In this document: positions 1-36,770 of the stretch, one piece after another
How the letters are laid out: every line of letters begins with the position of its first letter
How positions within the stretch are numbered: the first letter of the stretch is position 1
Source: a virus
Reading direction: 5' to 3' (one strand)
DNA length: 64,000 bases
Virus record (IMG/VR): IMGVR_UViG_3300042401_001747
The notes under the pieces: model-generated
What the model saw: only the letters and a program-made list of their open reading frames with translations
The model's database searches: none
Told to the model about the DNA's origin: nothing
Position numbers and translations under genes: made by a program

Positions 1-1573
1 TAAGTATTTCAAAAGGGTTGAGCGGCAGTTTTTTTATTCCATCACCAAACTCGGCCTGTTCATGGGCTCCAAAAACTATCGATTCGTTGCCAATTTTAAA
101 AACTTGACCTGTCCATATGTATTCTTTTGGAGTAAAGCCTTCCTCCACTACCGGTGAGGAAGAGACGTTTGACGTTTTTAATAAAAGGTCAGACTCAAAA
201 GTGTAGTCACCATCACGAAGAACGTCTTCACCGTCACTATATTTTGCAAAGAAGCCATATTTTCTGAATCCTTTTGCTCCGTAATCCGCTGTTCCGTTGT
301 TTACATAATTAAACCATCTTCTAGTTTCTGCACTGGAAGTAATGTTTGTATCTGGGTTTTTGATAAGAACATGGTCAAGAAGGGCTTCTAGGACTCCTGC
401 TTTTTGCGATTCCTTGCTTGCATTGTAAGAAAGAAGCTTAGTTGCTTCTCCTGTCGGGGGTTCGGAAAATGTAAGGCTTGCGATTTGTCCGCTTTCGTCC
501 TCGATAAATACAGAAAAACCATCTTCTGATTGAGAAGTTTTTATGTCATATCCATCGCCGTTAAAACGAATAGAAGAATACTCTTTGCCGTCCCGAGAAG
601 TTTCTAGAAGTTCTGACGGGTTGCGCTTGTCGTTATAGTCCGCTGATTCGTCGTAGATATTTTGTGCGTTATAGCGCCTAGCTGCACCGCTAGAGAGTCT
701 TCCCGACGAGGGAGTGGCTGCAGAAAATGCTTTTCCATCTTCGCTCAGTGCGTCGCTATGCTGAAGGTCTCTTTCTGGAAAAACCTCACGGTGGGTATTA
801 AACATTTCAGCAGCAATGCCTCTTCGCCTATGGCCGCCGCGTGTATTTATTTGAAAAACTTCGTTTCTGTCTTCTACATACCATGTCTCTAATGCCGCAA
901 TGATTTTCATTTTTTCGTCACCAAGCGCGCTACGTAGTGCATCCTGCATATCTACGTCATCTATAGATAGTGGTGATTTTTTCCCATTAAAAGGGTTTTC
1001 TCCTTGTTGATTAAAATTATCAAGAAGTTTTTTGCGCTTTTCATCTACCGCAGAAGATGAGTAAGCCCTTACTTCGCCATCTTTATCCAGAACTATCCAG
1101 TAGTCTTCTTCTTTACCCTTTGGCTGAGTTGACCTAACTTTTTTTGCAGCTTTTAAGTTTCCATAGTCATAAACTTCAATCTCCGAGAGTTGAGTCATGC
1201 CGCTAGATAGTCTTTTTGGCGAGGGTGTCTTGTCAGAAGACGAAGACGCTATTGAATCCGGAGTCCCTGGCTTTTTCCCTTGACCGTCAATTCCGACCCA
1301 TACTGGCTTTGTTGTTCCCTCATCTGCCCAGCCATCACCGTCAACGTCCATTCTGGAGCCGGTAGGTTTTCTTTTTCCCGGCTTACCGCCCGTGGGGAGC
1401 TCGATATTTCCGAGTCTTCTTCTTTTACGTCCTTCGCCAATTGTCGGTCTATTTACTCCGCGAGAAGCTAAATACTGACCAAGTCGCCCTACGGCCGCTT
1501 TTTCCTCTTGGTTGGCCGCCAGACCGCGTCTGGACTCCTCGAAAGGGATGGGGAATTCATTATCGGAAGACAT
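1..1573 (-). CDS. Large multidomain (polyvalent-type) protein, 3' end beyond the window; GNAT-like acetyltransferase module bracketed by RLSSG motifs
   Basis: Missing from the ORF track because it has no stop in the window. Manual translation from ATG 1573 is open to position 1 (MSSDNEFPIPFEESRRGLAANQEEKAAVGRLG...). GNAT acetyl-CoA motif HRRRGIAAEMF followed by HSDALSEDGKAF. RLSSG at aa 121 and 292. TATTAT -10 lies 8 nt upstream. Confidence 0.85.
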   Translation of the reverse strand, partial: MSSDNEFPIPFEESRRGLAANQEEKAAVGRLGQYLASRGVNRPTIGEGRKRRRLGNIELPTGGKPGKRKPTGSRMDVDGDGWADEGTTKPVWVGIDGQGKKPGTPDSIASSSSDKTPSPKRLSSGMTQLSEIEVYDYGNLKAAKKVRSTQPKGKEEDYWIVLDKDGEVRAYSSSAVDEKRKKLLDNFNQQGENPFNGKKSPLSIDDVDMQDALRSALGDEKMKIIAALETWYVEDRNEVFQINTRGGHRRRGIAAEMFNTHREVFPERDLQHSDALSEDGKAFSAATPSSGRLSSGAARRYNAQNIYDESADYNDKRNPSELLETSRDGKEYSSIRFNGDGYDIKTSQSEDGFSVFIEDESGQIASLTFSEPPTGEATKLLSYNASKESQKAGVLEALLDHVLIKNPDTNITSSAETRRWFNYVNNGTADYGAKGFRKYGFFAKYSDGEDVLRDGDYTFESDLLLKTSNVSSSPVVEEGFTPKEYIWTGQVFKIGNESIVFGAHEQAEFGDGIKKLPLNPFEIL

Positions 1574-1608
1574 TTAATTAAATAATACCATTAGAAGATA
1601 TGCGCAAA

Positions 1609-1962
1609 CTAAAGCCGATTACCGCATTTAGTGCATATCTTGGCCCAAGGATAGAAACGCATCATTTCCATTGGGTGGTCACATTCGAGCAATCTCTTGG
1701 CTTCGGAATTAAGAATGTTTCTAATCCACGCAGAAAGGGTCACCTGCTCTATGTTGGCAGCTTCTTTCCATCTGCCTCTTTCGTAGTCGTTGGTACGAAT
1801 AAGGACCTGTTTGTCTGCTGGACCGTCTGAAGCGTCAATTAAAGGTGAGACAGTGGGTGTCAAGGTTTCTGCAACCTTGTCCATAGCTACGCGAATATTG
1901 TCAAGTTCGTCATTTTCATTGTTCGATATCGTCATCGCTTGGGTCCCTGTAGTTTGGCTCAT
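1609..1962 (-). CDS. Ribbon-helix-helix-like DNA-binding protein with C-terminal Zn ribbon
   Basis: KQVLIRT...RWKEAA...TLSAWIRNIL fits an RHH pattern; CDHP...CTKCG at the C-terminus. True start may be ATG 1935. Confidence 0.55.
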   Translation of the reverse strand: MSQTTGTQAMTISNNENDELDNIRVAMDKVAETLTPTVSPLIDASDGPADKQVLIRTNDYERGRWKEAANIEQVTLSAWIRNILNSEAKRLLECDHPMEMMRFYPWAKICTKCGNRL

Positions 1963-2584
1963 CCGTTGAGTCAGATACTACTTCAGCGTCGATAATCAAA
2001 CCTTCATCTTCTTGGTTTTTTCTAAGAATTGCATAAACAGTCTCCTCTGGTAACACCCCAGAAATCGCCATTAATTCCAGCAACTTTCTTGCTTCTGATT
2101 CGGCATCGAAACCAACTGCAGGCATTGTTACGCCAGGCTGGCCCGCAATAGTCGCGCGAACTGTTTGATTTAGGGTTCCGTCAACGTTTACGTTTACGTT
2201 CGTCTGCTCCATGCCAAGCAATTTCGTTCTTCGGTCCATTATGGAGAGAACTTGCTGTATTGCCTTGAGGTCCGGCTCTATCTGCATTTCTGTTCCATCG
2301 TCACCGACTATGCGTCTGTGTTGCGTCATGGGCCATATTGCTTGCTGCAGGTTGTCTAAACGCTCCAGCTCCATTCTCAAGACTTCAGGGTAAGCGAGGA
2401 TGGCTTCCTTGTTCATCTTTTCAAGCTGACGTTGGATAGACCTGGACACTGAGGCTGAAGAAACACCAAATCTTCTGGCTATTTCATTTACGGAAGTTCC
2501 TGCTTGACGCATCTTGAAAATGCGCATGTCTCTTTCGTTTAGAAACTCTTTAGTAGTAATTGGTTTTGATTTTTCGTCACTCAT
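1916..2584 (-). CDS. HTH DNA-binding protein, terminase small subunit-like
   Basis: N-terminal HTH (SVNEIARRFGVSSASVSRSI) followed by ELERLDNL...DLKAIQQVLSIMDRRTKLLG, a pattern seen in actinophage TerS-like proteins. Confidence 0.55.
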   Translation of the reverse strand: MSDEKSKPITTKEFLNERDMRIFKMRQAGTSVNEIARRFGVSSASVSRSIQRQLEKMNKEAILAYPEVLRMELERLDNLQQAIWPMTQHRRIVGDDGTEMQIEPDLKAIQQVLSIMDRRTKLLGMEQTNVNVNVDGTLNQTVRATIAGQPGVTMPAVGFDAESEARKLLELMAISGVLPEETVYAILRKNQEDEGLIIDAEVVSDSTDEPNYRDPSDDDIEQ

Positions 2585-4422
2585 TTAACAGCCTTAGACC
2601 ACTCGACGACCTCAAATGGAAATCTGACGCCTCTCTTAATTTTAGTAGGCCATTGGCGCTCGTCACGAGCACCTCTGAAATGGCGTACATCATAAACATA
2701 GCCTCCCAATGCCGTTGGGTCTGGCTGAAGAGAAATACCGAACTCTGGCCACCTAGACCAGACAGCCGAACCGAACGGACGCAGGTCCCTGCTTGTCATA
2801 CTTGTACCAAGAGGGGCGTGATGCTCAATCCATAGGGCGCATTTATAGATGGTTCTAATCGTGTCCAAGTATTTTGCAACTTCTAATGCGATTGACTCAG
2901 AAGTTCTGCCACCTGGGTCTAAGAACGCCTTATAAAGAGGACCTATGACCAAAAGCTCAGGCTTGACCGTATCAAGCGCTTCTTCAAGAATCGCCCTATC
3001 GCTAGCCTTCAGCAAATCCATTCCAGATGGACGAGTTAGCAATTCGGCGTTCAGGCGAGACACGCGACCCTGCGACATGGCTTGAAGCGCTATAGAGCGA
3101 CCAGTTCTTCTAATGATTCTGTCTGGGTTTTCAAGGTCAACCGTAAGTGTTGTGATTGGTTTCATGGGTTGAAACGAAAACGGATGTATTCCAGCCGCTG
3201 AAAGAAGCGCAACCTGTCTAGCCAACATTGTTTTACCGACACCTTCGGCAGCAACAACAATAACTCTTTCTCCTCTTTCAATAAGGCCAGGTATAGCCCA
3301 ATCGTAAGAGTCTCCATCGGATTCATTAATAAAATCGTTCCAGTGAACAAGACGGCCCGTATCTAAAGTAAAAGAAACAGTTGCCGTTGCGAGAATGAGA
3401 CCGCTTTTTGCTATCTTCTGTTTATTATTTAGGTCGCTTCTGTCTAAGATTTCTTGAATCTTGGTTAGAGCCAAGTCTTCAGGAGAAAGTTCGTCTGTAA
3501 TCTTTGATTCAGAAACAACTACTTCATTAAATCCATCCGCAGACATTTGTTCCGGTTCTGGTTCTTCTGGAATGTACGGAACTAGTTCGTCAATAGCTTT
3601 TCCAGCCTCAAGGTGGTCCGTTATGTCCTTGTGCTCTGGGCATACCCAGACTTGAGCGTCACATCCCACCGCTTTAAGTTTTTCACAAACATCTAAAGCG
3701 TGTTTTAATCCAACCTCGTCTTTGTCGGCGATTATCTCCACAACTAAACCAGCAAGGGGTTCGGTATGAATATCAAGCCATTTCCCAGCACCACCAGGCA
3801 TGGTTGTAGCAATATAACCAGCGTCAGTCAACGTGTCTACGTCTTTTTCGCCCTCTACAACCCATACGGCAGCATCAAACTTCTTTGAGTTTATAACTGC
3901 GGGAAGATTGTAAAGAACCTTAGGTATATCGCCGAGGCTGTACTCCCAGCCACCTCTAGAGTCGGGCTTTCGTTGACTAAATGTTTTCTTGCCGTTCTCG
4001 TCTACGTATCTAAGCTTTTGGAATAACAGTTTTCCATTTTCGTCCGTGTAGTCGTAGGTTGCTACCAATGTTTGCTTTGTTGAAGGTGTAGGTTTTGCGA
4101 CCACTGGTTTTTTCTGTTGCTCTGAGCTTTTTGGTGGAGAAACTGGACGATAATCTTTGTTCTGTAGATAGTCCGAATCGTCTTTTCGTGGCATCAAATC
4201 TGCAACACTCAAACCAACGGCAGTACATATCTCTTCTACGTTGCAGGACATTCCTCGATGACAGGTAACGAGAACTCGACCATCCATTCCTTGTCCAACA
4301 GAGAGAGACGGATTAGCGTCATCATTTCTGCAGGGACAGCGCGCAATCCATCCAGAGCCAGCCTTACGAACACCATCTAATAAGGCTAGAAAATTTTCAG
4401 TTTCTAAAGAAGGATTTGTCAT
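2581..4422 (-). CDS. DNA primase-helicase (Zn finger, TOPRIM, RepA/AAA-type helicase)
   Basis: CPC...CH.G Zn-binding region; TOPRIM motifs VVEGEKDVD and IADKDEVG; Walker A AAEGVGKT; IEHH and RPFGSAVW helicase motifs. Confidence 0.9.
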   Translation of the reverse strand: MTNPSLETENFLALLDGVRKAGSGWIARCPCRNDDANPSLSVGQGMDGRVLVTCHRGMSCNVEEICTAVGLSVADLMPRKDDSDYLQNKDYRPVSPPKSSEQQKKPVVAKPTPSTKQTLVATYDYTDENGKLLFQKLRYVDENGKKTFSQRKPDSRGGWEYSLGDIPKVLYNLPAVINSKKFDAAVWVVEGEKDVDTLTDAGYIATTMPGGAGKWLDIHTEPLAGLVVEIIADKDEVGLKHALDVCEKLKAVGCDAQVWVCPEHKDITDHLEAGKAIDELVPYIPEEPEPEQMSADGFNEVVVSESKITDELSPEDLALTKIQEILDRSDLNNKQKIAKSGLILATATVSFTLDTGRLVHWNDFINESDGDSYDWAIPGLIERGERVIVVAAEGVGKTMLARQVALLSAAGIHPFSFQPMKPITTLTVDLENPDRIIRRTGRSIALQAMSQGRVSRLNAELLTRPSGMDLLKASDRAILEEALDTVKPELLVIGPLYKAFLDPGGRTSESIALEVAKYLDTIRTIYKCALWIEHHAPLGTSMTSRDLRPFGSAVWSRWPEFGISLQPDPTALGGYVYDVRHFRGARDERQWPTKIKRGVRFPFEVVEWSKAVK

Positions 4423-4430
4423 CTAGATGG

Positions 4431-4754
4431 TCACCGAGGCAGGAGTAGGTTGACGGGGACTTTAGGAATCATAATGATATTTAGTTTTCTTCTCATTTGA
4501 TGCCTCTCACGTTCTGACGCTCCACCCCATATACCAAAAGATTCGTGATACAAGCCGTAAGACAAACACTCTAAACGAACAGAACAATCTTTGCAAATGC
4601 TCTTCGCAAGTGCAGCATCTTTTTTTGCTTTGCGATAATTGTCTGAGAATTTTCCTGGCTGAGATTTGTCCGCCATAGGAAACCACATGTTGAGGTCTTG
4701 TCCAGTGCAACTACCACCCTCGGGAATACTGTCTATACGTTCAATATTGTTCAC
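4431..4754 (-). CDS. whiB: WhiB-family Fe-S transcription factor
   Basis: C...WFP...ICKDCSVRLECL four-Cys pattern and the GIWGG.SERER signature. Confidence 0.92.
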   Translation of the reverse strand: MNNIERIDSIPEGGSCTGQDLNMWFPMADKSQPGKFSDNYRKAKKDAALAKSICKDCSVRLECLSYGLYHESFGIWGGASERERHQMRRKLNIIMIPKVPVNLLLPR

Positions 4755-4784
4755 TAGTAAACCCTGTCTTGCCGTGGGGAGAAG

Positions 4785-5195
4785 TTATTCTCCTGCGATA
4801 CGGATTACATCGCGAGATGAAAGATACACGACTGCGCTGCGAATCACAAGTTGACCGTTGATATCTTCTGAAGCAACATCTACTGCTTCCATCGGAACAC
4901 CTATTCTGGAAGCAATCGCTGCTCTGGTTTTTTCTATTCGAGTTTCTTGTTCTGCTAAATCATCATCGTAAAAAACGTTTGATGGAGAAGGTGCAGTAAA
5001 AGACTTAAGCTCTACTTGCTTTTCTTTGGCGCGCAAGCACCACATGCACGCAATATCACTTGATGAAGCTTTGCGTTTTCTAACATCAATATGACCACAA
5101 GAAAGCTTGTGCTGATACGTTAGTTGTCCCCATGCTCCTATTTTTTCAATAGAAATAATGGCCCTACGTGGGGCTTTTCGTCGTTCTGTTGTCAT
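4785..5195 (-). CDS. Hypothetical protein with putative Zn-binding motif
   Basis: LSCGH...CMWC; same strand as neighbours, tightly packed. Confidence 0.6.
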   Translation of the reverse strand: MTTERRKAPRRAIISIEKIGAWGQLTYQHKLSCGHIDVRKRKASSSDIACMWCLRAKEKQVELKSFTAPSPSNVFYDDDLAEQETRIEKTRAAIASRIGVPMEAVDVASEDINGQLVIRSAVVYLSSRDVIRIAGE

Positions 5196-5222
5196 TTGGG
5201 CGAAGCTTTCCTCTCGGAAAGA

Positions 5223-5549
5223 CTAACGCTTAAACAGTTTTGAAAAGATTCTCTTCAAGGTGCCAACGCGAGCAGGGGCTTCCTTCTTCACAAGGTCTTT
5301 AATCTCGTTTGTGGTGGATGAAATGAAATCTTTAAATTCAGATGTTCCATCAACGAAATTAATTTTAATCGTTTCCAATTCGTGCAATGCTTCATGAATT
5401 ACTGCTGCTTCAACGGCAGGCTTAACGCTCTTCTTCTTTGGAGCCGCAGTTTTCTTGGCGGGAGCCTTTTTGGCGGGAGCCTTTTTCTTGGCTGCAGCCT
5501 TCTTGACTGGTGCTTTTTTTGATGATGTTTTTTTCTTGCTATCGCTCAT
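5223..5549 (-). CDS. Histone H1-like Lys/Ala-rich basic protein
   Basis: KKAPAKK repeats in the N-terminal half. Confidence 0.65.
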   Translation of the reverse strand: MSDSKKKTSSKKAPVKKAAAKKKAPAKKAPAKKTAAPKKKSVKPAVEAAVIHEALHELETIKINFVDGTSEFKDFISSTTNEIKDLVKKEAPARVGTLKRIFSKLFKR

Positions 5550-5641
5550 GGCTAAAACAATAGCGTACGGGTATGTCGTACAGGGTAAAACAACTTTATT
5601 TGTTTACCCGTATTCTGAGGGTCATTGACTAAGATTTTTTC

Positions 5642-6280
5642 GTGGAGCAATATGTAAATGATTTTAGTAAAATGGCACTGGCATTGACCTCGGCCCAAAT
5701 GGCTAAGGATGAAGCGGTCAGTGAACACGGACTAGGAGAAGAGCTCTCGATTCATTTTCTAGCTTGGCTAGACAACACCCTCATAGCGATTTGCCAAATG
5801 AACGGGGAAACTGGCAAGCTTGACCCTGAAACTAGGTTCAATAGATGTAAAGAGTTATGCAAAGTCCTCAGGACGGACTTGTGGTCAACTGCGATAACTA
5901 TGGTTTCAGAAGGATATTGCTCCCTAGACTCCTACAAGACCAAGAACATGGACCTTGCCACCGCTTTTGCTGACCAAAGTCTCCCGGTTTACGAGTGCAT
6001 AACCGTTAGTCATACGTCCATTGATGAAGATACTGACCACGTTTCTCCCGTTTCAATGGTTGCAGCGCCGTACAAGATTGAAATAGGCAGAAAAGTTAGC
6101 TGGAAAGAGGTGTTGGTTTATCCAGAAAAAGCTGACGAATACACTCGCCAGACCAAGTACCCGACCATGCTCCGCAGGGTTTTGCAGATGGACCCAGACG
6201 ATTCCGTTACTGGAGACAATCTAGCCACAGCGACATCCAAGATTTCCGACCTAGGGTTTATAATGCAGAGATTAATTTAA
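5642..6280 (+). CDS. Hypothetical protein
   Basis: 212-aa ORF, GTG start 6 nt after a TAAGAT -10. Confidence 0.7.
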   Translation: MEQYVNDFSKMALALTSAQMAKDEAVSEHGLGEELSIHFLAWLDNTLIAICQMNGETGKLDPETRFNRCKELCKVLRTDLWSTAITMVSEGYCSLDSYKTKNMDLATAFADQSLPVYECITVSHTSIDEDTDHVSPVSMVAAPYKIEIGRKVSWKEVLVYPEKADEYTRQTKYPTMLRRVLQMDPDDSVTGDNLATATSKISDLGFIMQRLI

Positions 6281-6293
6281 GTAAACTTATATT

Positions 6294-6623
6294 ATGTCTG
6301 AATTTTATAATAGTGCTGGATTTGGTGAGTCATCCCTCTTTAGAAATGATGCGTCTGGAATAGATATCCACAGGGCAGACAGACAGCCATGCCCGGTCTG
6401 TGGTCACCCTACTGGAGACTGCGTAGGAGATACTCCCGCTCCGGAGACAATATGGGGATACAACACTTCGTCTTCGCTAGACAACTCGTTAACTTTCTAC
6501 ATTGAAGAAGATTATTTTGAAGAACGTGAAATTGCGCCCGGAATAATTACAAAGATTCTTGTCTTTAAAAAGGGAAAAAACATTCCTTTGGCCACTGCAA
6601 AAGAATACGGTTTCATAAAATAA
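6294..6623 (+). CDS. Hypothetical protein (CPVCGH motif)
   Basis: 109-aa ORF; TAAACT -10 lies 6 nt upstream. Confidence 0.7.
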   Translation: MSEFYNSAGFGESSLFRNDASGIDIHRADRQPCPVCGHPTGDCVGDTPAPETIWGYNTSSSLDNSLTFYIEEDYFEEREIAPGIITKILVFKKGKNIPLATAKEYGFIK

Positions 6624-6714
6624 ATTTCATCGTCTCTCGACTTTTTCTTTATTCGTTTTTGCGCTACACTCATTTACTCACAGTTATTAAGTGACCCCTA
6701 CCTGACAGGAAATT

Positions 6715-8640
6715 ATGAACCTCATTGACGATGAATTTATTGCCTCATACGCGAACAAGCAAGTCCCTTGGGGCTTTAACGGAATGGGTGAAATCGTTTT
6801 TTTGCGCACCTATGGTCGCTTAAAAGAGAATGGCGATATTGAAACATGGGCTGAAACAATTCAGCGAGTTGTTAATGGAGCAATTGCTATTGGTGTTCCT
6901 TACACCAGAGAAGAAGCTGAAGAACTTTTTGACCACATGTACCACTTGAGGTGTTCAGTAAGCGGTAGAGCGCTTTGGCAGCTTGGAACTCCAATGGTTG
7001 AATCTTTTGGTGGAGCATCGTTGAACAACTGCTACTTCACAAACATCGAAAAGATAGATGACTTTGAGTTTCTCTTTAACTACTTGATGCTTGGTGGCGG
7101 AGTTGGATTTTCCGTAGAGCGTTCAAAGATTCATGACCTTCCCAAAGTGAAGTCTGGCGTTGTTATTTCACACGAACGAACAAACGATGCGAACATCATT
7201 GTTCCAGACTCACGAGAGGGCTGGAGCCGTCTACTACATGCCGTATTGAAGTCATACTTTGATACTGGTAAGTCTTTTACTTACTCAACAATTCTTGTAC
7301 GAGAGTACGGAGCAAAGTTAGGCAAGATGGGTGGAACTGCATCAGGTCCTGGTGCGCTTATTGAAGGCGTCGAAGACATTTGTAAAGTTTTGGAAAACAG
7401 AGTAGGAAAGAAGCTTCGGTCTATCGATGTTTTGGATATTTGTAACATTATTGGTCGCGTTGTTGTTTCCGGCTCGTCGCGTCGGTCGGCGCAAATAGCC
7501 GCAGGCGACCCTGATGACGTTTTGTTCCAGCGTGCCAAGAACTGGGGAAGTGGAAACATTCCTGCATGGCGAGCAAACAGCAACAACTCTATCTATGCCG
7601 ATGGTTGGGACGAGATTCCTGCTGAGATTTGGAAGGGCTACGACGGTTCTGGCGAACCATACGGATTCCTTAACAGAAAGCTTGCAAGAGCCGTCGGTCG
7701 ACTTGGTGAAAAGAACGTTGATAACTCAATCGAAGGTTTTAATCCATGTGCCGAAATCGGCCTAGCAGATGGAGAGTCGTGCAACTTGTCCACAATCTTC
7801 CTGCCGAACGTGGAATCCGTAAAACAGTTGATGTCTATCTCTCGTCTTCTCTACATGACACAAAAGCAAATAACACGACTTTCGTACCCGTTTGAAAAGA
7901 CAACCAAGATTGTTCGCAAGAACGCCAGAATTGGACAAAGCGTCACAGGAGTGCTTCAAGCCTCCGAACAGCAGGTTTCTTGGCTCTCCACGACATACGA
8001 CTACCTTCGTGACCTTGACGCCGAGTACTCAGCAGAAAAAGGCTTTCCGAAGTCCATCCGTCTTACCACCGTACAGCCCTCTGGGACGCTCTCTCTGCTT
8101 CCTGGGGTCACTCCGGGCATACATCCGGCCTTTGCAGCCTATTACACCCGTAGAGTCCGTTTTGGCTCGAATGACCCACTTGTGGAAGCCTGCCGTAAGA
8201 GGGGCTACAAGGTTGTCTGGGATATCGGTATCGATGGACGAGAAGACCACACCCGTTATGTTGTTGAGTTCCCTTGTGAATCACCGCAGGGGTCGATTCT
8301 GGTCAGTGAAATGACAGCGGTTCAGCAATTGGAGTGGGTCAAGAAGCTTCAGACAGAATGGGCAGACAATGCCGTATCGGTCACTGTGTATTACCGCAAG
8401 GAAGAACTTGAGGAAATCAAGCAATGGCTTTCAAAGAATTACAACGACAGCGTTAAGTCTGTTTCGTTCCTTCTTCACACAGACCATAACTTTGTTCTTC
8501 CTCCATACGAAGAAATCACAAAAGAAGAGTACGAAAAGACTGTCGCAAAGATTGACTTCACTATTCCGCTTGTTCAGTCAAAGTTCGATGGAGAAATTGA
8601 CATGGAAGATTGCGCAACAGGAGCCTGCCCAGTAAAGTAG
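6715..8640 (+). CDS. nrdJ: Class II (adenosylcobalamin-dependent) ribonucleotide reductase, monomeric RTPR type
   Basis: LNNC, GGGVG, RRSAQI, active-site NPCAEI, TVQPSGT and C-terminal redox pair CATGACPVK; no NrdB/NrdF partner nearby. Confidence 0.93.
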   Translation: MNLIDDEFIASYANKQVPWGFNGMGEIVFLRTYGRLKENGDIETWAETIQRVVNGAIAIGVPYTREEAEELFDHMYHLRCSVSGRALWQLGTPMVESFGGASLNNCYFTNIEKIDDFEFLFNYLMLGGGVGFSVERSKIHDLPKVKSGVVISHERTNDANIIVPDSREGWSRLLHAVLKSYFDTGKSFTYSTILVREYGAKLGKMGGTASGPGALIEGVEDICKVLENRVGKKLRSIDVLDICNIIGRVVVSGSSRRSAQIAAGDPDDVLFQRAKNWGSGNIPAWRANSNNSIYADGWDEIPAEIWKGYDGSGEPYGFLNRKLARAVGRLGEKNVDNSIEGFNPCAEIGLADGESCNLSTIFLPNVESVKQLMSISRLLYMTQKQITRLSYPFEKTTKIVRKNARIGQSVTGVLQASEQQVSWLSTTYDYLRDLDAEYSAEKGFPKSIRLTTVQPSGTLSLLPGVTPGIHPAFAAYYTRRVRFGSNDPLVEACRKRGYKVVWDIGIDGREDHTRYVVEFPCESPQGSILVSEMTAVQQLEWVKKLQTEWADNAVSVTVYYRKEELEEIKQWLSKNYNDSVKSVSFLLHTDHNFVLPPYEEITKEEYEKTVAKIDFTIPLVQSKFDGEIDMEDCATGACPVK

Positions 8641-8644
8641 ACAC

Positions 8645-9193
8645 ATGTCTAAAAATATGTCCTACGAAGAGCGTTTTTTCCAAAAGGTAAACAAGACCGA
8701 ATCTTGTTGGCTATGGACGGGCGCTTTGAATTCCAAAGGCTATGGTTCCATGGGTTTTGAAGGCAAAACTACAAGCACGCACAAGCTCAGTTATTTATGG
8801 TTTAGAGGCGAAATACCAGAAGGAATGTTTGTCTGTCACACTTGTGACGTCCCGCCGTGCGTTAATCCTGAACATCTTTTTTTAGATACAAATTCAGGAA
8901 ACATGAAGGATATGTTCAAAAAGGGAAGAAACCCCCCTCAGACGAAAAAACAGACTCATTGTAAAAAAGGTCATTCTTTTGAGGAATTTGAACCGCTTGT
9001 ATACGTGAAGAAACAGGGTAGGCAAATTGGTAAAGAATACAGAACCTGCAAGGAATGCAAGCGCATAAGTGACTCAAAAAGAAGAGGCAAGAACCTTGAG
9101 TACATGCGCGAGTACAATCTGAAAAACAAAGAGAAGCTAAATGAACAGCAAAGAAACCTGTATCATGCTAAAAAGAATAAACAAAACCCCTAG
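8645..9193 (+). CDS. Free-standing HNH homing endonuclease
   Basis: CWLWTG...GYG...VCHTCDVPPCVNPEHL...N..DM core, plus THCKKGH...CKEC Zn/DNA-binding tail. Confidence 0.88.
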   Translation: MSKNMSYEERFFQKVNKTESCWLWTGALNSKGYGSMGFEGKTTSTHKLSYLWFRGEIPEGMFVCHTCDVPPCVNPEHLFLDTNSGNMKDMFKKGRNPPQTKKQTHCKKGHSFEEFEPLVYVKKQGRQIGKEYRTCKECKRISDSKRRGKNLEYMREYNLKNKEKLNEQQRNLYHAKKNKQNP

Positions 9194-9265
9194 CGTCGGT
9201 GGCCCAAGGGATAAGGCAACAGACTTCTAATCTGTAGATTGCAGGTTCGAATCCTGCCCGACGCG
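9193..9265 (+). tRNA. tRNA-Arg (anticodon TCT, reads AGA)
   Basis: Acceptor GCGTCGG/CCGACGC, D-arm, anticodon arm ACAGA-CTTCTAA-TCTGT, T-arm GCAGG-TTCGAAT-CCTGC; CCA not encoded. Confidence 0.95.
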
Positions 9266-9288
9266 CAATATCACTATAGGATTTAGCT

Positions 9289-9672
9289 ATGAATATCAAC
9301 ATAGGTTCAGACCCGGATTTCCAAAACATCCTTGACCGTTTTGCTGACGGCATACCGGCAACCATTGACTGCGGTTATGGCTGGGCGGAACTAATAATAA
9401 AATGCGATACTATTTTATTTACTCAGGACCCGAACTATACGGTTGCGCAGATAAAAGAAAAGTTTGGTGGACTGCGGTTTTACTTCAATCTTTCAAACAT
9501 GGAAGAATACAGTAAAGTTAATTCGCTGATTCTTGCTATCGAGCAGGATTCTTTCAGCGTGTGTGAGAAATGCGGTGAACCAGGATATCCACGCAAGGTG
9601 GAGACGTCAGGAATGCGTTATACGTCTTGCGACGAGCACGAAATCTATTCCCACATTTCAGGGTTGGGGTGA
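9289..9672 (+). CDS. Conserved phage hypothetical protein
   Basis: GW...QIKEKFGGLRFY...CEKCG motif, familiar from phage hypothetical proteins. Confidence 0.75.
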   Translation: MNINIGSDPDFQNILDRFADGIPATIDCGYGWAELIIKCDTILFTQDPNYTVAQIKEKFGGLRFYFNLSNMEEYSKVNSLILAIEQDSFSVCEKCGEPGYPRKVETSGMRYTSCDEHEIYSHISGLG

Positions 9673-9750
9673 CCCACTGCTTTTTTTATCTTTATAGCTG
9701 TTCTTGCCACAACAACGGCTGAAACAATTGCCGCTAGCCAGTTAATAACG

Positions 9751-10209
9751 TTATTTATTTTTTTCTTCACGTATTGGTCCTCCGGTGACCCAAGCGCGAC
9801 AAGTTCTCTTTGAAGCGCATTTAAAGTCGAATGCTTCACAGTATCCTAGTTCACCAGCTTCGTCTATTGCTCCCCATTCGTCTTTTCTGTCGTCTCCAAC
9901 AAGTCCGTCTTGTATGCATGACTTCATTTGTGGGGTGACAATAAAAACTGCGCAATTGCCGCATTTCTGCTTCTTAGCCTCTTCGGTGCTTACTTCCCAC
10001 TCGTTGGCAAGTTTGGACCAGAACTCTTCGTTTTTCTCTTCTGGATTAAGCGGGCCATAGTCGGCAACAGCAATTGCCTTTTTACGATTTAGTAGGTTTA
10101 CCGAAACATCTTTTGTTGCCGTTGGGCATTTAGCAGAATCGTCTGCCTTTTCTTCTATGCGTATTCCTTTAATTGGTCCACGATATGAAGCCCATGTATT
10201 GTTGTTCAT
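9751..10209 (-). CDS. Cys-rich conserved phage protein (probable metal binding)
   Basis: CPTAT...YGPLNP...FW...CGNCAVF...GYCEAFDFKCASKRTCRAW.GGP. Confidence 0.75.
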   Translation of the reverse strand: MNNNTWASYRGPIKGIRIEEKADDSAKCPTATKDVSVNLLNRKKAIAVADYGPLNPEEKNEEFWSKLANEWEVSTEEAKKQKCGNCAVFIVTPQMKSCIQDGLVGDDRKDEWGAIDEAGELGYCEAFDFKCASKRTCRAWVTGGPIREEKNK

Positions 10210-10604
10210 TTAAATTCTTCCCAGGTTTTGTCTCCTTGGCCGTAGTACTCACGAGCGTAGCCCGATGAAACTATGTCCTGATTAAGGCATGCGGTTAATT
10301 CGGATTTGACGTCCTTGTCGGAATATATTAAAGCCAGTACTCTTCCGTACTTATCGTCCTTGCCAGCAATCGTCTTTAAAAAGACCGTAGAGTGTCGCGC
10401 TGTCCAGTCCGTAGTAAAAGATTTTGCCTTGAGGCCCATTTGTTTTTCCGCTAAATCTTTGGTACGTGACTCCGGGGTATTTACCCCATAAAGTCTTACT
10501 CTGGCTTTGTGGTGAATACTAAACCCCAGGTCTATCATCACGTCCAGAGTGTCTCCGTCTATTACCTTGAGTACTTTTGCTGTGTACCAGTATTGCTCAG
10601 CCAT
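10206..10604 (-). CDS. Thermonuclease (staphylococcal nuclease-like)
   Basis: VIDGDT, VRLYGVNTPE, DKYGRVLA, GYA motifs. Confidence 0.9.
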   Translation of the reverse strand: MAEQYWYTAKVLKVIDGDTLDVMIDLGFSIHHKARVRLYGVNTPESRTKDLAEKQMGLKAKSFTTDWTARHSTVFLKTIAGKDDKYGRVLALIYSDKDVKSELTACLNQDIVSSGYAREYYGQGDKTWEEFK

Positions 10605-11418
10605 TTTTTTGCTTAGCCTTGCGACGCTGTTTCATCATTTTTGCTGCCTTGGACATTCTTTTTAGTTCTTCTGAATCTTCCGAAACATAAGACTGCGATG
10701 CGGTTTTGGACGAAGGCGCTAGCTCGGAAATGTTTCTCCGAAGGGATGCGCGTATCGCTTGCTGCTCTTCGGACATGGATTCACTCAAGAACAACATTCC
10801 ATCAGGAGGTATAAGTCCTTTAAGTTCTTCTGAATTAATAAATTCGTTATAACTATCTGGCGAAAACTTATTAAAGTAGTCGTAAGAAAAATGTGATTTC
10901 TTAGATTTAGAATTCTGGTATCTTTCCAGCATTCTTCTTCCTTTTGCTGCAAGCTTCTTGGCATCTTCGATATTTTGAGGCACCGGTTCACCCCAGGCTG
11001 AAGCCGATAGAGCCAATCTAGTTGCTCTGCCCTTTTCGTCTTTCATAGGGCCTGATGGGTTTGTGAAGAAACGAGTCAAGAAAGAACCTTTTCTTCTCAT
11101 CTTTTCAGGAGTATCGGCAGCCCCCCTTACTCCTGGCTTCAAGCTAGCTCCTTCTTTTCTTTTGAAGTAAGCTCGTCCGGCAGCAGTCAGGCCACCCTTT
11201 GGGTCTTTAAGTACTGGTTTTTTTGAACCTTTGACTAGTACTTCCTGGAAAACAAAAGAGCCGTAATATTCATCGAATATTGGGTGCATTTCAATGTGCT
11301 TCAGCTCAATCATGGATTGGCTGGCTATCTGCTCAAGGGCTAGTTCTACCTCTATTTGGTCAGATAGGCCCTGGAGTTCTTCAAACGTTTTTTCGATGTC
11401 ATCAAATGGATTAGTCAT
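10597..11418 (-). CDS. DUF6321-like head-region protein
   Basis: KDPKGGLTAAGRAYF...LKPGV...RRKGSFLTRF...TRLALSASAWG basic domain, recognised from memory of this family. Confidence 0.6.
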   Translation of the reverse strand: MTNPFDDIEKTFEELQGLSDQIEVELALEQIASQSMIELKHIEMHPIFDEYYGSFVFQEVLVKGSKKPVLKDPKGGLTAAGRAYFKRKEGASLKPGVRGAADTPEKMRRKGSFLTRFFTNPSGPMKDEKGRATRLALSASAWGEPVPQNIEDAKKLAAKGRRMLERYQNSKSKKSHFSYDYFNKFSPDSYNEFINSEELKGLIPPDGMLFLSESMSEEQQAIRASLRRNISELAPSSKTASQSYVSEDSEELKRMSKAAKMMKQRRKAKQKNG

Positions 11419-11449
11419 ATAAGATATCTTCTCATAGTTTTTGGGTTAT

Positions 11450-11493
11450 AAAAGGCAAAAACCCCGCCCACCCCCTAAAGGATGAACGGGGTT
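11450..11493 (-). terminator. Rho-independent terminator after the major capsid gene
   Basis: Minus strand AACCCCGTTCATCC...GGGTGGGCGGGGTT stem (with G-U pairs) followed by TTTGCCTTTT, about 15 nt after the capsid stop. Confidence 0.75.
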
Positions 11494-11507
11494 CCGCTTA
11501 GTGCTTA

Positions 11508-12875
11508 TCAGGCTGGTGCGCTGTTGAAGGTTACTTCGACGAATGCTTCTGGGCGCTTGACAGCGAGTGCAAGTCTTTGCTCTGCAAGGATAACGATTGC
11601 GTTGCGGACGAAGAAGTCCGAATGCTGTTCGCTGATGCGGATGCTTGCTTCTTCACGGTCGTACAACTGTGCTCCGGTACCGAAGGCTCCAACAAGTGCC
11701 TTACCTTCAGTCATTGCTGGAGTGTCAACGATTGGCATACGCCAGACGCGTGGCTCGCCACCCATTGCAACCGAAACTGCGATGAGGTACTGGCCGTTAG
11801 TGTCCTTGGTAAGCTCGATGTCTTCCCAGTCGTTCGGGTGAAGAACGATGCCGCTTGGCTCGTAGTACGCAAGGAACGACAAGGTTGCCGCACGACGAAG
11901 TGCATCTGCCTTGGTGTCTGGTACTGGCAGAGCTGCACCGCTTGACCAGTTGTATGTCTGAATGTTTGGTGTGTTACGAACGCCCAACAAGTTTTCACCA
12001 GCACCGTTACCGTTGAGGATTTGGTTATCCTCAAGGAGACGGAGACCGTACATCAATTCGTTGTCGATGATGCTGCGGAGCTGTGGCTCGTCTGCAAGAA
12101 CGTTACGGTGTGCTGCTTCCCAATGTGCAAGTGTACGCACTGGAGCCTGCTCACCAACGAAGGCGAACGAAGACTGTGGCTTGACACCGAATGCGGTATT
12201 GCCGGCGTTACGCTCTGCAACTGTTGATGCACTGTTTACGCCTGCTCCAGCCTGCAAGGTTGTGAAACCAAGTTGACGGAAGTATTCGATAACTGCAGCG
12301 TTTGTCTTGCGGACTGGGAACAAGTCACGAACACGCTTTGTACGTGTTGGTGGCAATACCATTGGGTCACGCTGTACGGAACCAAATGAACCAAGACGGC
12401 TATCGGTTACTGCTGTTGTTGGCAGACCCGAGTAAACGTCCTTTACGTTGTAACCAGAGGTGTATGAAGTCAACGATGCAGCAATTTGCCATGGTGAAAC
12501 CATGTTTGCTCCATTGCGGCCACCATTAAGTGCCTTGAACTCTGCTGAATCAGTGAACATTTGACCAATTGACTTGATTTCATGTGATGACAAGCTACCA
12601 AGGTCTGCTGCAGCGGCAGCATAAGCTGCTCCTGTGGAGCTACCTGATGGCTGTGATGCCCAGTTATCAACTTGGTTCATGGTCTCAAGGTCACCGATAA
12701 GGCCCTTGATTTCTTTGATGTCGCGCATGTTCTTGTCGAACGCTGACTTTTGCTCAGGAGTAACGACTACTGTGCCGTCCTCGATTTTGAATGAATCTGC
12801 GATGGTCTTATTGTCTGCCATCTTTGTGCGAAGAGCTGATTGTAGTTCTTCTGTACGTGCTTTGTCTTCCGACAT
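11508..12875 (-). CDS. Major capsid protein, HK97 fold with N-terminal delta (scaffold) domain
   Basis: RVRDLF, VAE...KPQS, VRTLAHW, LRSIIDNELMYGL, QILNGNG, HPNDWEDIEL.KD.NG.YL, FVRNAIVILAEQRLALAVKRPEAFV; coiled-coil N-terminus; GAGGAG RBS. Confidence 0.96.
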   Translation of the reverse strand: MSEDKARTEELQSALRTKMADNKTIADSFKIEDGTVVVTPEQKSAFDKNMRDIKEIKGLIGDLETMNQVDNWASQPSGSSTGAAYAAAAADLGSLSSHEIKSIGQMFTDSAEFKALNGGRNGANMVSPWQIAASLTSYTSGYNVKDVYSGLPTTAVTDSRLGSFGSVQRDPMVLPPTRTKRVRDLFPVRKTNAAVIEYFRQLGFTTLQAGAGVNSASTVAERNAGNTAFGVKPQSSFAFVGEQAPVRTLAHWEAAHRNVLADEPQLRSIIDNELMYGLRLLEDNQILNGNGAGENLLGVRNTPNIQTYNWSSGAALPVPDTKADALRRAATLSFLAYYEPSGIVLHPNDWEDIELTKDTNGQYLIAVSVAMGGEPRVWRMPIVDTPAMTEGKALVGAFGTGAQLYDREEASIRISEQHSDFFVRNAIVILAEQRLALAVKRPEAFVEVTFNSAPA

Positions 12876-12958
12876 TGGGTTCTCCTCTTATGAGTTGGGT
12901 GGGGGTATTGGTATTTTGTCCAAGGCTTAGGTAAGCACCCAGCTCTTATGTATAAACA

Positions 12959-12994
12959 AAAATAACAGATAATTCACACCTCTCGGTGTAACTA
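12959..12994 (-). promoter_or_regulatory. Candidate late promoter (TAGTTACAC-N21-TATTTT)
   Basis: One of four copies with identical spacing; lies upstream of the major capsid gene. Confidence 0.6.
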
Positions 12995-13031
12995 ATAATA
13001 TTTTGCAATTAAAGTACGTAAATAGATTACG

Positions 13032-13703
13032 TTACTTACTAATGAGCTCTCGCGTGAGGGATGTTTTCCTTGTGACGCTTGACTTTGGTTTTTCGCGTAA
13101 GACAGTCCTGACGGCGTTTCTGGTTTCCTGTTCACGCCTCTTGCTGACGTTTCTTCTGCCCAAAGATGTTGAACCAGTTCTATTGGAATAATCAGTCATA
13201 TTTGTGCACGGCATCCATACCGTGCGTCCTGACTTGCTCACTCTTCTACTGATTCCTATGCACCCAATCTGGCGAGAACGAGCCTTGGCGGATTCCGGGT
13301 CAATAAAGACGTCTACGTCGTTATCTCTTACAAACTCTGGGCCGACACCCTTTTCTTCGCAGCATCCAATGGATTTACCACTAAAAGACGTAGACGAGAC
13401 GATTCCTCCACCTTCCAGTGAGCCGATTCCTCGTATTGGTGCTTCCGTCAGGTTTTCCCATCCATCAGAGCGTCGTTTTCTCTTGTTTTTTCCGATGCTT
13501 CTTTTTGTTCCCGCTTCTTTAGCTCCTGGAACGACACTTCTCCATCTTGATGTCTCGGCAGTGTTTGAGATTCTTTCCATCTCTTCCATGGAAGCGCAAG
13601 GCATCCATCTACCTTCTGAATCTTTGTGTGCGCCGGAGCACCCTATGTCTTGAGCAAGACGCAGAGCCAATACTTTTGCTTTTGCTGGAGATTTACCTTG
13701 CAT
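13032..13703 (-). CDS. Head-region protein with two IGCxG...WMPC repeats
   Basis: IGCSGAH...WMPCASM and IGCIGIS...WMPCTNM. Confidence 0.75.
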   Translation of the reverse strand: MQGKSPAKAKVLALRLAQDIGCSGAHKDSEGRWMPCASMEEMERISNTAETSRWRSVVPGAKEAGTKRSIGKNKRKRRSDGWENLTEAPIRGIGSLEGGGIVSSTSFSGKSIGCCEEKGVGPEFVRDNDVDVFIDPESAKARSRQIGCIGISRRVSKSGRTVWMPCTNMTDYSNRTGSTSLGRRNVSKRREQETRNAVRTVLREKPKSSVTRKTSLTRELISK

Positions 13704-17052: not shown

Positions 17053-17557
17053 TTATGGCCTTTTCTATACTTCTCATAGTCTTAACTGAAAGCCACGCAA
17101 AGTCGCGTTCTTCTAGCGACTTAAAGGCGTAATCGTTTACGTTTAACTGTACCACCTCGCTGCAGCACGAGTTGGAAAGCATGCGGCGAGTGATTTCGTC
17201 CAGTCGGAAAGACTTAACAGACTTTTCAGTTTTGTCTATCTTTTTCTTATTTTTACCAAGCGCTGAATGCATTGGCATCGAGTCCATGAGTGAATCGTTT
17301 ATTGGACGTGTTTTCTCAATAAAGGTTTCGTACCATGCTCCCGACAAGGGGTCTTTGGGGGAGTCCCATACGAATCTTTGAAAAGGAGTGTTTCGTAGTT
17401 TTGTAAGATTTCTAGCCGTACTTGACAAGTGCATTAAATCCATTTTTACAATCGAGCCGTCAGCCTTCTCAACAGCCGCATCCTTCTGGCCTCTTTTTGC
17501 GTCCACGTCGTAATAAACACGCGAGTCCCCAAGAAGCGCTACAAGTGCAGCTCTCAT
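17039..17557 (-). CDS. Hypothetical head-region protein
   Basis: 172-aa ORF; ATGA overlap with the upstream giant gene. Confidence 0.7.
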   Translation of the reverse strand: MRAALVALLGDSRVYYDVDAKRGQKDAAVEKADGSIVKMDLMHLSSTARNLTKLRNTPFQRFVWDSPKDPLSGAWYETFIEKTRPINDSLMDSMPMHSALGKNKKKIDKTEKSVKSFRLDEITRRMLSNSCCSEVVQLNVNDYAFKSLEERDFAWLSVKTMRSIEKAINDEQ

Positions 17558-20500
17558 AGCTTTCCTCCATATATGGATGTCACTTTTGGCTTATTTGTGG
17601 TTTTCATTTGCTTAAGTAAGTCTTTCGCTGCTGCAATAATTTCCTCAGCTATGGAGTCCTTAAGGGTTGACTCAACAGACTGGCCTGCTTTGGCACTCTT
17701 TGAATGAGAGCGAGCGTCTTCAATATTGAAACCATTCGGGTGAGCAAACTTGACATTATTCAGGCCACGCTTAGCAAAGTCGTCTTTCATCTTCTGCGAT
17801 GCTCTGTATTTACGGAGCATGGACATGCTTGCCGTGTCTAGCGATTGTCCTCCACCCATAGAGTAGAAGTATTCAATCTCTTCTTGAGAAAATCCAGCTT
17901 TTCTTAACTTGTCAGCAATCGATACGGCATCAACAACGTCGGAAATGTCTTCTTTCGCCGAGGCGGCTTCAATCTTGCTCAATGGAACGTTTATTTGTTC
18001 GATATCAGCAACGTCAAATCCGCCCAGAATCTGAGCCTCAAAAGGTTCCCTGGTGGAGCCTTCGGGTAGTTTCTTGTCGAACGAAGATGGCATTTTTCCA
18101 CTAGAGCTTCTTGATGCGTTTGCGTTCGAAAAATCGTTATTCAAAGAAGAAGAGAGCATATGTAGAAGAGCTTCTCGTTTTGTTTCTTCAGCGTTTACTC
18201 CGTCGGCATTAAGGATTGCGTCAGCTACGTCATCTCTGTTACGCGAGTTAAGCATTACGGGCCTGTGAGCCGAAGTGAGAGCATTGCCTCGTCCGTAGGC
18301 GACTCGGTTTGACACTCCAGGGCGCAAAACTATTTCCATGTCACCCAGAGCAGTTAGGCCGTCTCCAACCAAATCTTCGTCCCCTACTTCAAACACGCCA
18401 TCTGGTCTGAGGTTTCCAGGCATTCCGCCTTTTGTAATCTGGGCACGTTTTGCATCCATGTGAGATTTGTGAACTAGATATCCACTTACTGGCATCATGT
18501 CCGGGTCAAGAGAACCGGGAAGACCTATTCTTGAATAGTATTCGCTAGCGTAGTTTTTAGGAGACATTCCTACCGTCTTGCCTGAAGCAGGAGCCTCAGT
18601 AGTCTTTCCACTGCTCAGTCTCTTGCCTTTACGCATTTTTGCCAACCTGCCAACAGATTCTCTTTCTGCGGGAGCATCTGCCGAAGGTTTTGTTCTCACA
18701 TTACGAACGGCTGCGTCAAGTTCTGCCTCACGAGCCCGTGCTGCTGGACCAGCTCTTCTCGTCAGTGCATCTTGTTGCCGAGTCAATACTTCTTCTGCAT
18801 ATGCAGGGTTGTTTCTCATCCCGACTGAATCAATCTCGATAAAGTCACCTTCTGCATAGATTTCAGCCGCAAGGTCATCCATGCCGTCGTTGATTTCTTT
18901 CAGCACCCTGTCTCTTTCTCCAATTTTAACTTTCTTAACATCGCCTTCTTCGAAGTCAACAGCTCCAGTAAGTTTTGCGTCCTTGATTCCTAATCCTCTT
19001 TGAAGAACTTTTGTTAAAGTAAGACCACTAATGATGTCTGTCTGAACTTCGTCAACGTGTAAGGGGATTTGCTGGTCGTCGTCTACTTCTCCGTTAAATA
19101 CGGTTATTGCGCTCCATCTATGGTGTCCGTCAAGTAGCAACTTATCTGAGGTTGCCAGAATGGGGTCCATCATTGCACTGGTACCCCTTCTTTCAGAAAG
19201 TTTAGCCTTAGCATTGGTGTCTTCTTTTAGGGCTTGAATTAAAGCATCGGTGAATTCTTTTGTTCCCCTCTTGTATCTTCCGTCTTTTGTAAGAACTTCG
19301 GTGTAGTGCTTAACGGCAGCTTTCAGTGATTTGTGCATCCCATCGGTCTGTACGGCATCTAATTCCTGTTGAGAAGGAGTGTAATCATCCGGGTTAACAG
19401 CCAGGTTTTCTTTTATTGAATCGTCACCCAATTTCCCTCTAATTATTTCCTTAATCATTTCTTCTCCGGAAACTTCAAAAAGATTCCAGTCCATATTTTC
19501 TATTACGAACTGTCTGTCTTCATCTGATATAGAGGCAGCGGATTCTGGACTCTCCTGAATTTTTTCCATGATTCCTTCAAATCTTTTTTCACCGTCCCAT
19601 GTTTTTATTTTATAAGGGTCAACATGTTTATGAGGGGCCTCTTTGATAGGAATCTGTCCAGCAAGACCGAGCTCTGCTCCGCGAGTATTTGCTCCTGCTA
19701 AGCGTCCACCAGCCTGAGGCATTTTTGCTCGTGGAATACCAAAATTGTTTCCGCAGAAAACGTTTTCGTCTCCATCGTAGAAATTGCAAAGATTCGTTTT
19801 GTATTGGTCGCCAAACTTTTTTAAGAATTCTTTTTTTATTTTTTCTTGGAAAACGGAAGGGTCTACGCCGTCGGCACCATCGATTTTTTCTGCTTCTGCC
19901 TTAAAATCAAGCCATTCTTTTTCATTATTGGCAATAATGTCTTCACCCATTGTTTCGATGTCTTTGAAGAATTCTTGCTGGAGTGTTTTTGCAAAACGTA
20001 AAGACTCTTTTTGTTTTTTAGCTATTGCTTCGTCGGAGGAGTACTCAAGGGTGACGTGATGACCCAGCGCCATCAATGCTATTGCTTGCCCGACATTGTC
20101 AACCTTATAAACAGCCATGTCCTTGGGGTCTGAGCTCGTAAATAACGGCTTCATGTCGCTTGGTTTTACCGAGTCACCAAAATCTTCTTTCAGCTCTTCA
20201 GGGGTGTATTCGTGAAGAGGTTTTCCGCGCTTACGAACTTTTGCTAGAACGTCTCCGGCTATTTTTCTAGTCGCATCCCTCTGGGCATTGACTTGTCTTT
20301 CTTTTGCCCTCGCTGCATAGTCTGGATTGTTTGAAAGACCAACCGAGCCAAGCTGAATAAAGTTTCCTTCGGCGTACTTGTCGTCCACAAGAGTTCCTAC
20401 GTTTTTGGTCAAGCCTTCCATGAGTTCAGATATTTCTTCCTTACCGATGTCGGTTATTTCTCCCTCTTTCCACTTGTTTTCAGCTCCGAGGCGCGCTTCC

Positions 20501-36770: not shown

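Follow-up and report, generated by a model that had tools for sequence, protein, structure and literature searches.

What is the function of a short peptide that returns again and again in the giant proteins of a single phage? The question is raised by a stretch of 64,000 nucleotides (the window) from the IMG/VR record IMGVR_UViG_3300042401_001747, which is part of the genome of an uncultured tailed phage of about 150 kb, a myovirus. The pentapeptide RLSSG occurs in it eight times, always on the minus strand and always within three open reading frames (ORFs): a protein of 2916 amino acids (aa; 28020..36770) with copies at 33225-33239 and 29592-29606, a protein of 2897 aa (17554..26247) with copies at 22447-22461, 22297-22311, 21883-21897 and 18607-18621, and a third giant protein which runs off the window and is represented by its first 524 aa (2..1573), with copies at 1199-1213 and 686-700. 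An initial annotation of this DNA had listed these eight copies and taken them for protease recognition sites of packaged polyproteins; a six-frame search returned exactly the same coordinates. RLSSG is one form of a wider unit, x-[LF]-[SA]-S-G, with a variable first residue. That this unit is a selected junction signal, located in linkers and bracketing the modules of giant virion-associated proteins, is strongly supported. Its best reading from the sequences, to which we give a probability of about three in four, is that of a proteolytic cleavage signal.

A conserved junction motif in four proteins

From composition, RLSSG is expected 0.04 times in the non-overlapping ORF set of the window (20,801 aa) and 0.01 times in the three giants (6,337 aa). 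The relaxed core [LFM][SA]SG is present nine times in the three giants, against 0.64 expected from shuffles which keep the composition of each protein. The linkers are rich in Ser and Gly, which might speak for chance or low-complexity composition, and a repeat at the DNA level was also considered. Against these explanations stand the nine copies where shuffles give 0.64, the codon sets of the eight RLSSG copies, which are all different, the conservation of the alignment columns over deep divergence, and the 1295 occurrences of [LFM][SAG]S[GR] in 148 homologous giant proteins where 145 are expected; they can be regarded as practically excluded. Differing codons together with conserved columns also agree with the earlier proposal that selection acts on the peptide rather than on the DNA.

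For the 2916-aa protein 110 homologs of 2000-5000 aa were found, on contigs of up to 180 kb, and nearly all of them carry the motif. Its four sites, KLNSG at aa 662 (34773..34787), RFSSG at aa 776 (34431..34445) and RLSSG at aa 1178 and aa 2389, keep their alignment columns in 25 sequences down to about 31% identity, with S and G conserved at 100% in three of the four, including the site at aa 776, while the flanks are poorly conserved and rich in gaps. The initial annotation had named a lack of conservation in homologs as a possible refutation of its proposal, and what was found is conservation by position. The two variants which it had added to the exact copies are genuine sites, being aligned with KLSSG or xLSSG of the homologs. 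At aa 662 the window has KLNSG and relatives with 90-97% identity have KLSSG, so that Asn replaces Ser directly ahead of the Ser that is otherwise invariant.

An AlphaFold model of aa 641-1240 of this protein, built on the 25-sequence alignment, covers three sites, and all three fall within, or border on, segments whose per-residue confidence score (pLDDT) is below 50. The site at aa 662 is within such a segment, that at aa 776 is at the edge of one, and that at aa 1178 is at the end of a low-confidence linker of 85 residues. The units kept apart by these low-confidence segments are a helical hairpin, the ArdC/MPTase core (aa 781-1097) and the beginning of the helicase module, in agreement with the earlier description of the motif as lying in linkers which bracket modules. 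The modules are an N-terminal S78 (HK97-type) prohead protease domain (aa 1-182; 36225..36770), an ArdC-N plus MPTase zincin module (folded core at 33480..34430; Pfam, phrog_7245 and the model) whose HExxH reads HETIH, and an SF1/UvrD-type helicase module (aa 1183-2388; 29607..33224; PF00580, PF13245, PF13538 and phrog_1967). All are encoded on the minus strand. Of the module names given by the initial annotation, S78, ArdC-N, MPTase and UvrD are supported by Pfam and PHROGs. Two others lack a Pfam match: GNAT, for aa 126-291 of the third giant, is a language-model lead only (score 0.94, with the ten best family-bearing matches from one family or clan; Pfam E 0.16), and ParB, for aa 1456-2542 of the 2897-aa protein, is a weak lead only.

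The 2897-aa protein has 38 homologs, each with three to seven sites. The sites fall into the same two regions, some fixed to a column and others shifted nearby. In the window its sites are at aa 1263, where the column is not fixed and equivalents are found nearby in homologs, at aa 1313 and aa 1451, both in conserved columns, and at aa 2543, where the corresponding module of homologs ends in a site, at about aa 2020-2060. A degenerate RLSST is present at aa 1412; RSSSG at aa 2713 was rejected, as its column is not conserved and it is probably not a site. The segment between the sites at aa 1451 and 2543 (18622-21882, minus strand) measures 1087 aa in the window and about 565-590 aa in two close relatives (P0232 and L004); the window thus has one module more, of about 520 aa, and no motif divides the two halves. 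In the third giant protein the sites are at aa 121 and aa 292, and a relative with 78% identity keeps both of these first two sites. Its homologs range from 2000 to 6500 aa with 7-18 sites each; one of them (L016) has sites at aa 108, 283, 437 and 993.

The initial annotation had seen no exact copy in the other proteins. This holds for RLSSG itself, and not for the wider motif. A 1597-aa protein (53710..58503, plus strand), which occupies the tape-measure position after the sheath and tube genes, carries KLSSG at aa 35-39 (53812..53826) and RVSSG at aa 568-572 (55411..55425), both on the plus strand and both conserved among 25 homologs. The first site is at aa 35-40 in 23 of them, down to 40% identity, as KLSSG, RLSSG, RFSSG, RFASG, RLASG or KLGSR. 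The second is found in 24, at aa 557-607 or, in three longer proteins, at aa 766-784, the exception being a fragment of 456 aa.

Restriction to these four proteins is seen in a complete relative (G004; 158,021 bp with terminal repeats, 198 ORFs), where the whole-proteome count that the initial annotation had proposed as a check gave a positive outcome: 23 of the 27 core motifs are in the three giants and the tape measure, and the remaining 39,579 aa hold four, which is about chance level. The motif exists in three clade-specific versions, xLSSG (class A, that of the window), GFASR (class B) and GLASx (class C). In one relative, whose gene order is the same, the 4223-aa S78 fusion holds 19 copies of G-[FL]-[ASG]-S-[RG], and the adjacent proteins hold hardly any. 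In the third clade GLAS is present 26 times in proteins above 1000 aa, and a GLAS-clade genome of 132 kb and 88% completeness (G006) has 34 copies of G-[LFM]-[SAG]-S where 7.4 are expected. The tape measure of this genome has GLAS at aa 21, 580 and 589; the sites of the tape measure thus vary together with the cargo code.

Proposed cleavage and the candidate proteases

The processing-site interpretation of the initial annotation holds as far as a selected, linker-located junction signal of giant proteins is concerned, and cleavage itself is what we infer from it. We propose that x-[LF]-[SA]-S-[GR] in disordered linkers would be the processing signal of proteins which leave the virion with the DNA, namely the tape measure and the three giant cargo proteins with their several enzymes. 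A phage-encoded protease would cut the giants into their modules (ArdC/zincin, helicase, GNAT-like and others), with the S78 prohead protease at the N-terminus of the 2916-aa protein as the leading candidate, and a leader of about 100 aa which precedes the first site would be a removable loading tag. As to the scissile bond, x|Φ, Φ-[SA]|S and S|G (Φ being the hydrophobic residue) may all fit.

The S78 domain matches PF04586 over aa 32-175 with 42.9 bits (cut-off 21) and phrog_80 with E 6.5e-26; a phmmer search of it against the PDB sequences gave no match. It is N-terminal in about 100 proteins. Across 23 diverse homologs it is 75-98% identical, with 105 invariant positions, and the invariant residues include H70, S134 (in SIGY) and E160-V-S-P-V. 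H70 and S134, invariant in 98 sequences, are by analogy with HK97 gp4 the candidate catalytic His and Ser. Distant S78 matches (L010 and L011) were rejected as cargo systems, being ordinary protease-capsid genes without cargo or motif. S78 is the leading candidate for the cutter, at somewhat less than even odds. It is universal, it is fused in most homologs to the protein richest in motifs, its H70 and S134 do not vary, and the motif is kept by relatives in which ArdC/MPTase was not detected. The succession of a leader and a first site is also as in the propeptides of T4 and SPN3US (PMC10052503). The capsid protein may provide a further substrate: L-S-S at aa 95-97 (12585..12593, minus strand) is a candidate maturation site, found as xL[ST]S[RHS]EIKSIG in 121 of 121 close homologs, which follows a variable Ala-rich stretch and joins the N-terminal helical part to the conserved body. 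The AlphaFold model of the capsid protein is too poor to place a maturation site (mean pLDDT 41), only the N-terminal helices at aa 1-68 being confident.

Several observations weigh against processing of this kind by S78. The motif is not confined to head proteins, since the tape measure has two conserved sites, and a protease confined to the procapsid should never meet this tail protein. The gene of the third giant adjoins replication genes, outside the head module, and the probable scaffold (556 aa) has no motif. At the capsid junction clades B and C are ambiguous: close to it, L-G-S is present in the GLAS clade, and the GFASR clade has only G-Y-A-I / I-P-T-R, without the invariant Ser. Among the S78 domains no substitution was found that is fixed between the xLSSG and GFASR classes, and only E129Q, R141D and Q143I mark class C. 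The residues flanking the motif are strictly class-specific, yet the domain is 75-98% identical, so that something else may read them. Modules are also left unseparated, with 1087 aa between the sites at aa 1451 and 2543 of the 2897-aa protein and a site-free stretch at its aa 1-1262. The motif, its conservation, its place in linkers, its restriction to four proteins and its clade versions are shown by the data; the cleavage, the cutter, the scissile bond, the loading into the capsid and the timing are things which we infer.

The tape-measure sites need a cutter which works outside the procapsid, and this brings in a virion-borne zinc metallopeptidase, whose substrates would be all the ejected proteins, with the tape measure among them, and whose action would probably follow ejection into the host; it could cut before Leu or Phe (hydrophobic P1'). 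We regard it as a tentative alternative. The main candidate is an unclassified zincin-like domain of the 2897-aa protein (aa ~480-760; 23968-24807, minus strand) with HExxH at aa 604-608 (24424..24438, minus strand), Q611, and a downstream ExxxE (E705 and E709). These residues are invariant in 17 sequences from all three clades, including L012 of clade B and L017 and G006 of clade C, and the HExxH...E pattern would fit a gluzincin. The domain diverges strongly between clades, as expected of a reader which co-evolves with its sites, and self-processing of such proteins by zincins has been proposed (Iyer et al. 2017; PMC5512222). On the other hand, comparison with Pfam, the PDB and the MPTase profile gave no match to a peptidase family and no relation to MPTase; the domain may be no protease at all or may be directed against host proteins, and cutting after ejection would equally allow S78, which is delivered too.

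The second zincin, the ArdC-linked MPTase, could take part where it is present. If MPTases processed their own chains, as proposed by Iyer et al. (P1 DdrB; PMC5512222), one should be found wherever the signal is used, and in G006, which uses the signal, none was detected. MPTase-PolyVal (PF18818) has no match there at E<=1, and our own ArdC/MPTase profile was negative in G006 and likewise in L017/L020. As it is undetectable in G006 and in the head module of a second GLAS-clade genome, the MPTase cannot be the universal reader, judging by its distribution. The earlier suggestion had named S78 or one of the two zincins as possible cutters; S78 and a zincin both stay in consideration, and the ArdC-linked MPTase falls away as a general cutter.

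All carriers of the motif are expected to travel through the tail channel, and the motif might accordingly be a docking or handling signal which is never cut (chaperone binding, capsid or portal binding in the manner of encapsulin cargo-loading peptides, threading through the tail), or its invariant Ser could be a site of modification. We consider this unlikely. Up to 19 copies are present per protein, at internal and not at terminal positions, and their number scales with the number of modules; a single hydrophobic residue among small ones is reminiscent of protease sites, the leader with its first site mimics known cleaved propeptides, and no kinase or other modifying enzyme was linked to the motif in this analysis. 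Self-cleavage by N-to-O acyl shift at Ser, a lipobox and a sortase signal were rejected, given the disordered linkers, the lack of Cys and the lack of fit to LPxTG or LAxTG. Reading of the motif by a host protease after entry into the cell would explain a code common to capsid cargo and tape measure, and the capsids of some Staphylococcus phages are matured by host proteases (discussed in PMC8569155). Three clade versions among phages whose proteins are otherwise similar (capsid 72-73% identical) fit a phage-encoded reader better, and cutting by an enzyme of the host, or by any other enzyme, appears very unlikely.

A shared leader and a poly-A run

Comparison of the window proteins with each other by BLASTP revealed no common targeting domain and no internal duplication at E<1e-3. 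A leader module is found at aa 1-102 of the third giant protein (1268..1573, minus strand), and the same module is common to the N-termini of about 35 giants and to aa ~520-630 of 71 S78 fusions. A profile hidden Markov model (HMM) of the leader identified a partial copy in the 2916-aa protein (aa 534-580; 35031..35171, minus strand; hmmsearch, E 1.5e-8). The leader is always directly upstream of the first motif, in the S78 fusions as well as in the N-terminal versions, where the motif is at aa ~103-126; in the window the first site of the third giant, at aa 121, comes just after it. The 2897-aa family is without leader. In sequence the leader reads R-L-G..[LI][AG]SR.IDRP.IG, followed further on by PTGG.PG.RKPTGS and DGDGWADEGT, and it holds itself the motif-like [LI][AG]S[RG].

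The protease part of the 2916-aa protein is separated from the leader-cargo part by a run of ten A, read directly from the sequence (35139..35148, minus strand), which encodes L-K-K-K at aa 541-544; KKK is invariant in 25 of 25 homologs. With nine A the frame would stop at aa 546 and with eleven at aa 550. In two distant phages from different assemblies, L018 (~9795-9815) and L019 (~2867-2880), the S78 ORF stops just past the run (A10, A13) and the leader-cargo ORF is in a different frame, which overlaps the run. The run looks like a programmed slippage site which would set the ratio of a short to a long form.

This arrangement recalls the retroviral Gag/Gag-Pol and the phage tail chaperone G/GT, which likewise have a structural and protease part, a slippery run and a long enzyme-bearing extension. 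In Gag/Gag-Pol the extension is later cut by the protease, which for the phage is a proposal. The phage differs in having a poly-A homopolymer and not a heptamer with pseudoknot, and in the window it is the long form that is read in frame. We suggest, as a possibility still short of probable, that a large family of uncultured tailed phages follows a retrovirus-like strategy: a protease-plus-assembly protein would be extended to a giant cargo polyprotein, the poly-A run would set the ratio of short to long form, one leader would load at least a dozen enzymes into the capsid, and one clade-specific code, read by a phage protease, would direct the cutting of all delivered proteins including the tape measure.

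Known systems and gene context

The closest described proteins are the polyvalent proteins of phages and conjugative elements (Iyer, Burroughs, Anand, de Souza and Aravind 2017; PMC5512222), which are predicted to be delivered into the host and possibly processed by their own peptidases. The likeness is in giant multi-domain chains with ArdC-N, MPTase, helicase and other conflict domains, encoded among virion genes. The 2916-aa ORF corresponds to their definition, having between two and fifteen domains with the hallmark MPTase and ArdC-N in one chain, and it is encoded among late genes in the order from portal to capsid, on one strand. In the polyvalent proteins, however, assemblin-like peptidases are described as rare and 'always at the C termini', and no junction motif is described (PMC5512222), whereas here S78 is N-terminal and there is a junction code, which is also on the tape measure and has clade-specific versions. 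A literature text search for RLSSG as a protein motif found none. The system is a variant on polyvalent proteins and on protease-processed virion cargo.

Processing of packaged proteins at a short motif is known from other phages. The prohead protease of T4, gp21, cuts at the motif L/I-x-E, and its substrates have a capsid targeting sequence. The proteases of SPN3US (gp245) and phiKZ (gp175) cut ejected head proteins after a three-residue motif, A-x-E (PMC10052503). As in these phages, one short motif recurs here in several proteins of the predicted head-packaged cargo, and the removal of N-terminal propeptides may have a counterpart in the leader. They remove the propeptides of single proteins, whereas here up to 19 internal sites would give enzyme-sized modules; the protease here is S78 and not of the T4 type, the site has small residues and no Glu, and a tail protein carries the motif.

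Assemblin of herpesviruses, of the same protease fold superfamily as S78, cuts at V/L-x-A|S. The capsid protein of phi12 is cut at R128|L129, and the tape measure of phi12 was found as fragments (PMC8569155). The common elements are a hydrophobic residue, a small residue and Ser, and R|L of phi12 resembles R|LSSG. In distinction to both, three possible scissile bonds fit here. The cargo-loading peptide of encapsulins, which is single and terminal with several hydrophobic anchors, was not matched, the sites here being internal, up to 19 in number and with one hydrophobic residue each.

If the motif is a cutting signal, one gene would bring in, along with the phage DNA, as many as about 20 separate enzymes for anti-defence or takeover, and module boundaries could be read directly from sequence in thousands of unannotated metagenomic giant proteins. 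It would be the first defined multi-site recognition motif for a virion protease of HK97 type, or of a new zincin type. Its clade-specific versions would be a natural system for the study of protease-substrate co-evolution, and the long-standing question whether, and by what, polyvalent proteins are processed becomes testable.

The minus strand of the window carries, in order, the portal protein (36897..38957; phrog_2662, E 8.5e-64), the 2916-aa and 556-aa proteins (the latter at 26263..27933), the 2897-aa protein, several small genes and the HK97-fold major capsid protein (11508..12875; phrog_10, with PDB matches to HK97 gp5). On the plus strand are terminase, sheath (50910-52364), tube, the 1597-aa protein and fibre genes. 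The synteny of the head module is kept in L012, L017 and L018, including the position of the 556-aa protein. As the C-terminus of this protein (aa 455-525) matches that of gp30, the protease-scaffold of a Gordonia phage (56% identity, E 1e-19), it is probably a scaffold. The host is probably a freshwater actinobacterium. Among isolates, Gordonia phages come closest, their capsid protein being about 48% identical; they have a separate protease-scaffold of 501 aa and no enrichment of the motif, and the comparison suggests that cargo was inserted into an ancestral protease-scaffold gene. The 2916-aa gene itself had no megablast match among GenBank phages.

That the cargo content varies freely is illustrated by a GLAS-clade relative (L020; 14082-15923), whose head module encodes a 613-aa protein that has a Zeta-toxin domain and a single GLAS site. 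The only pentapeptides which outnumber RLSSG in the window are in a tail-fibre protein (61766-63289, plus strand) with collagen-like G-x-y repeats, where GATGP is repeated nine times.

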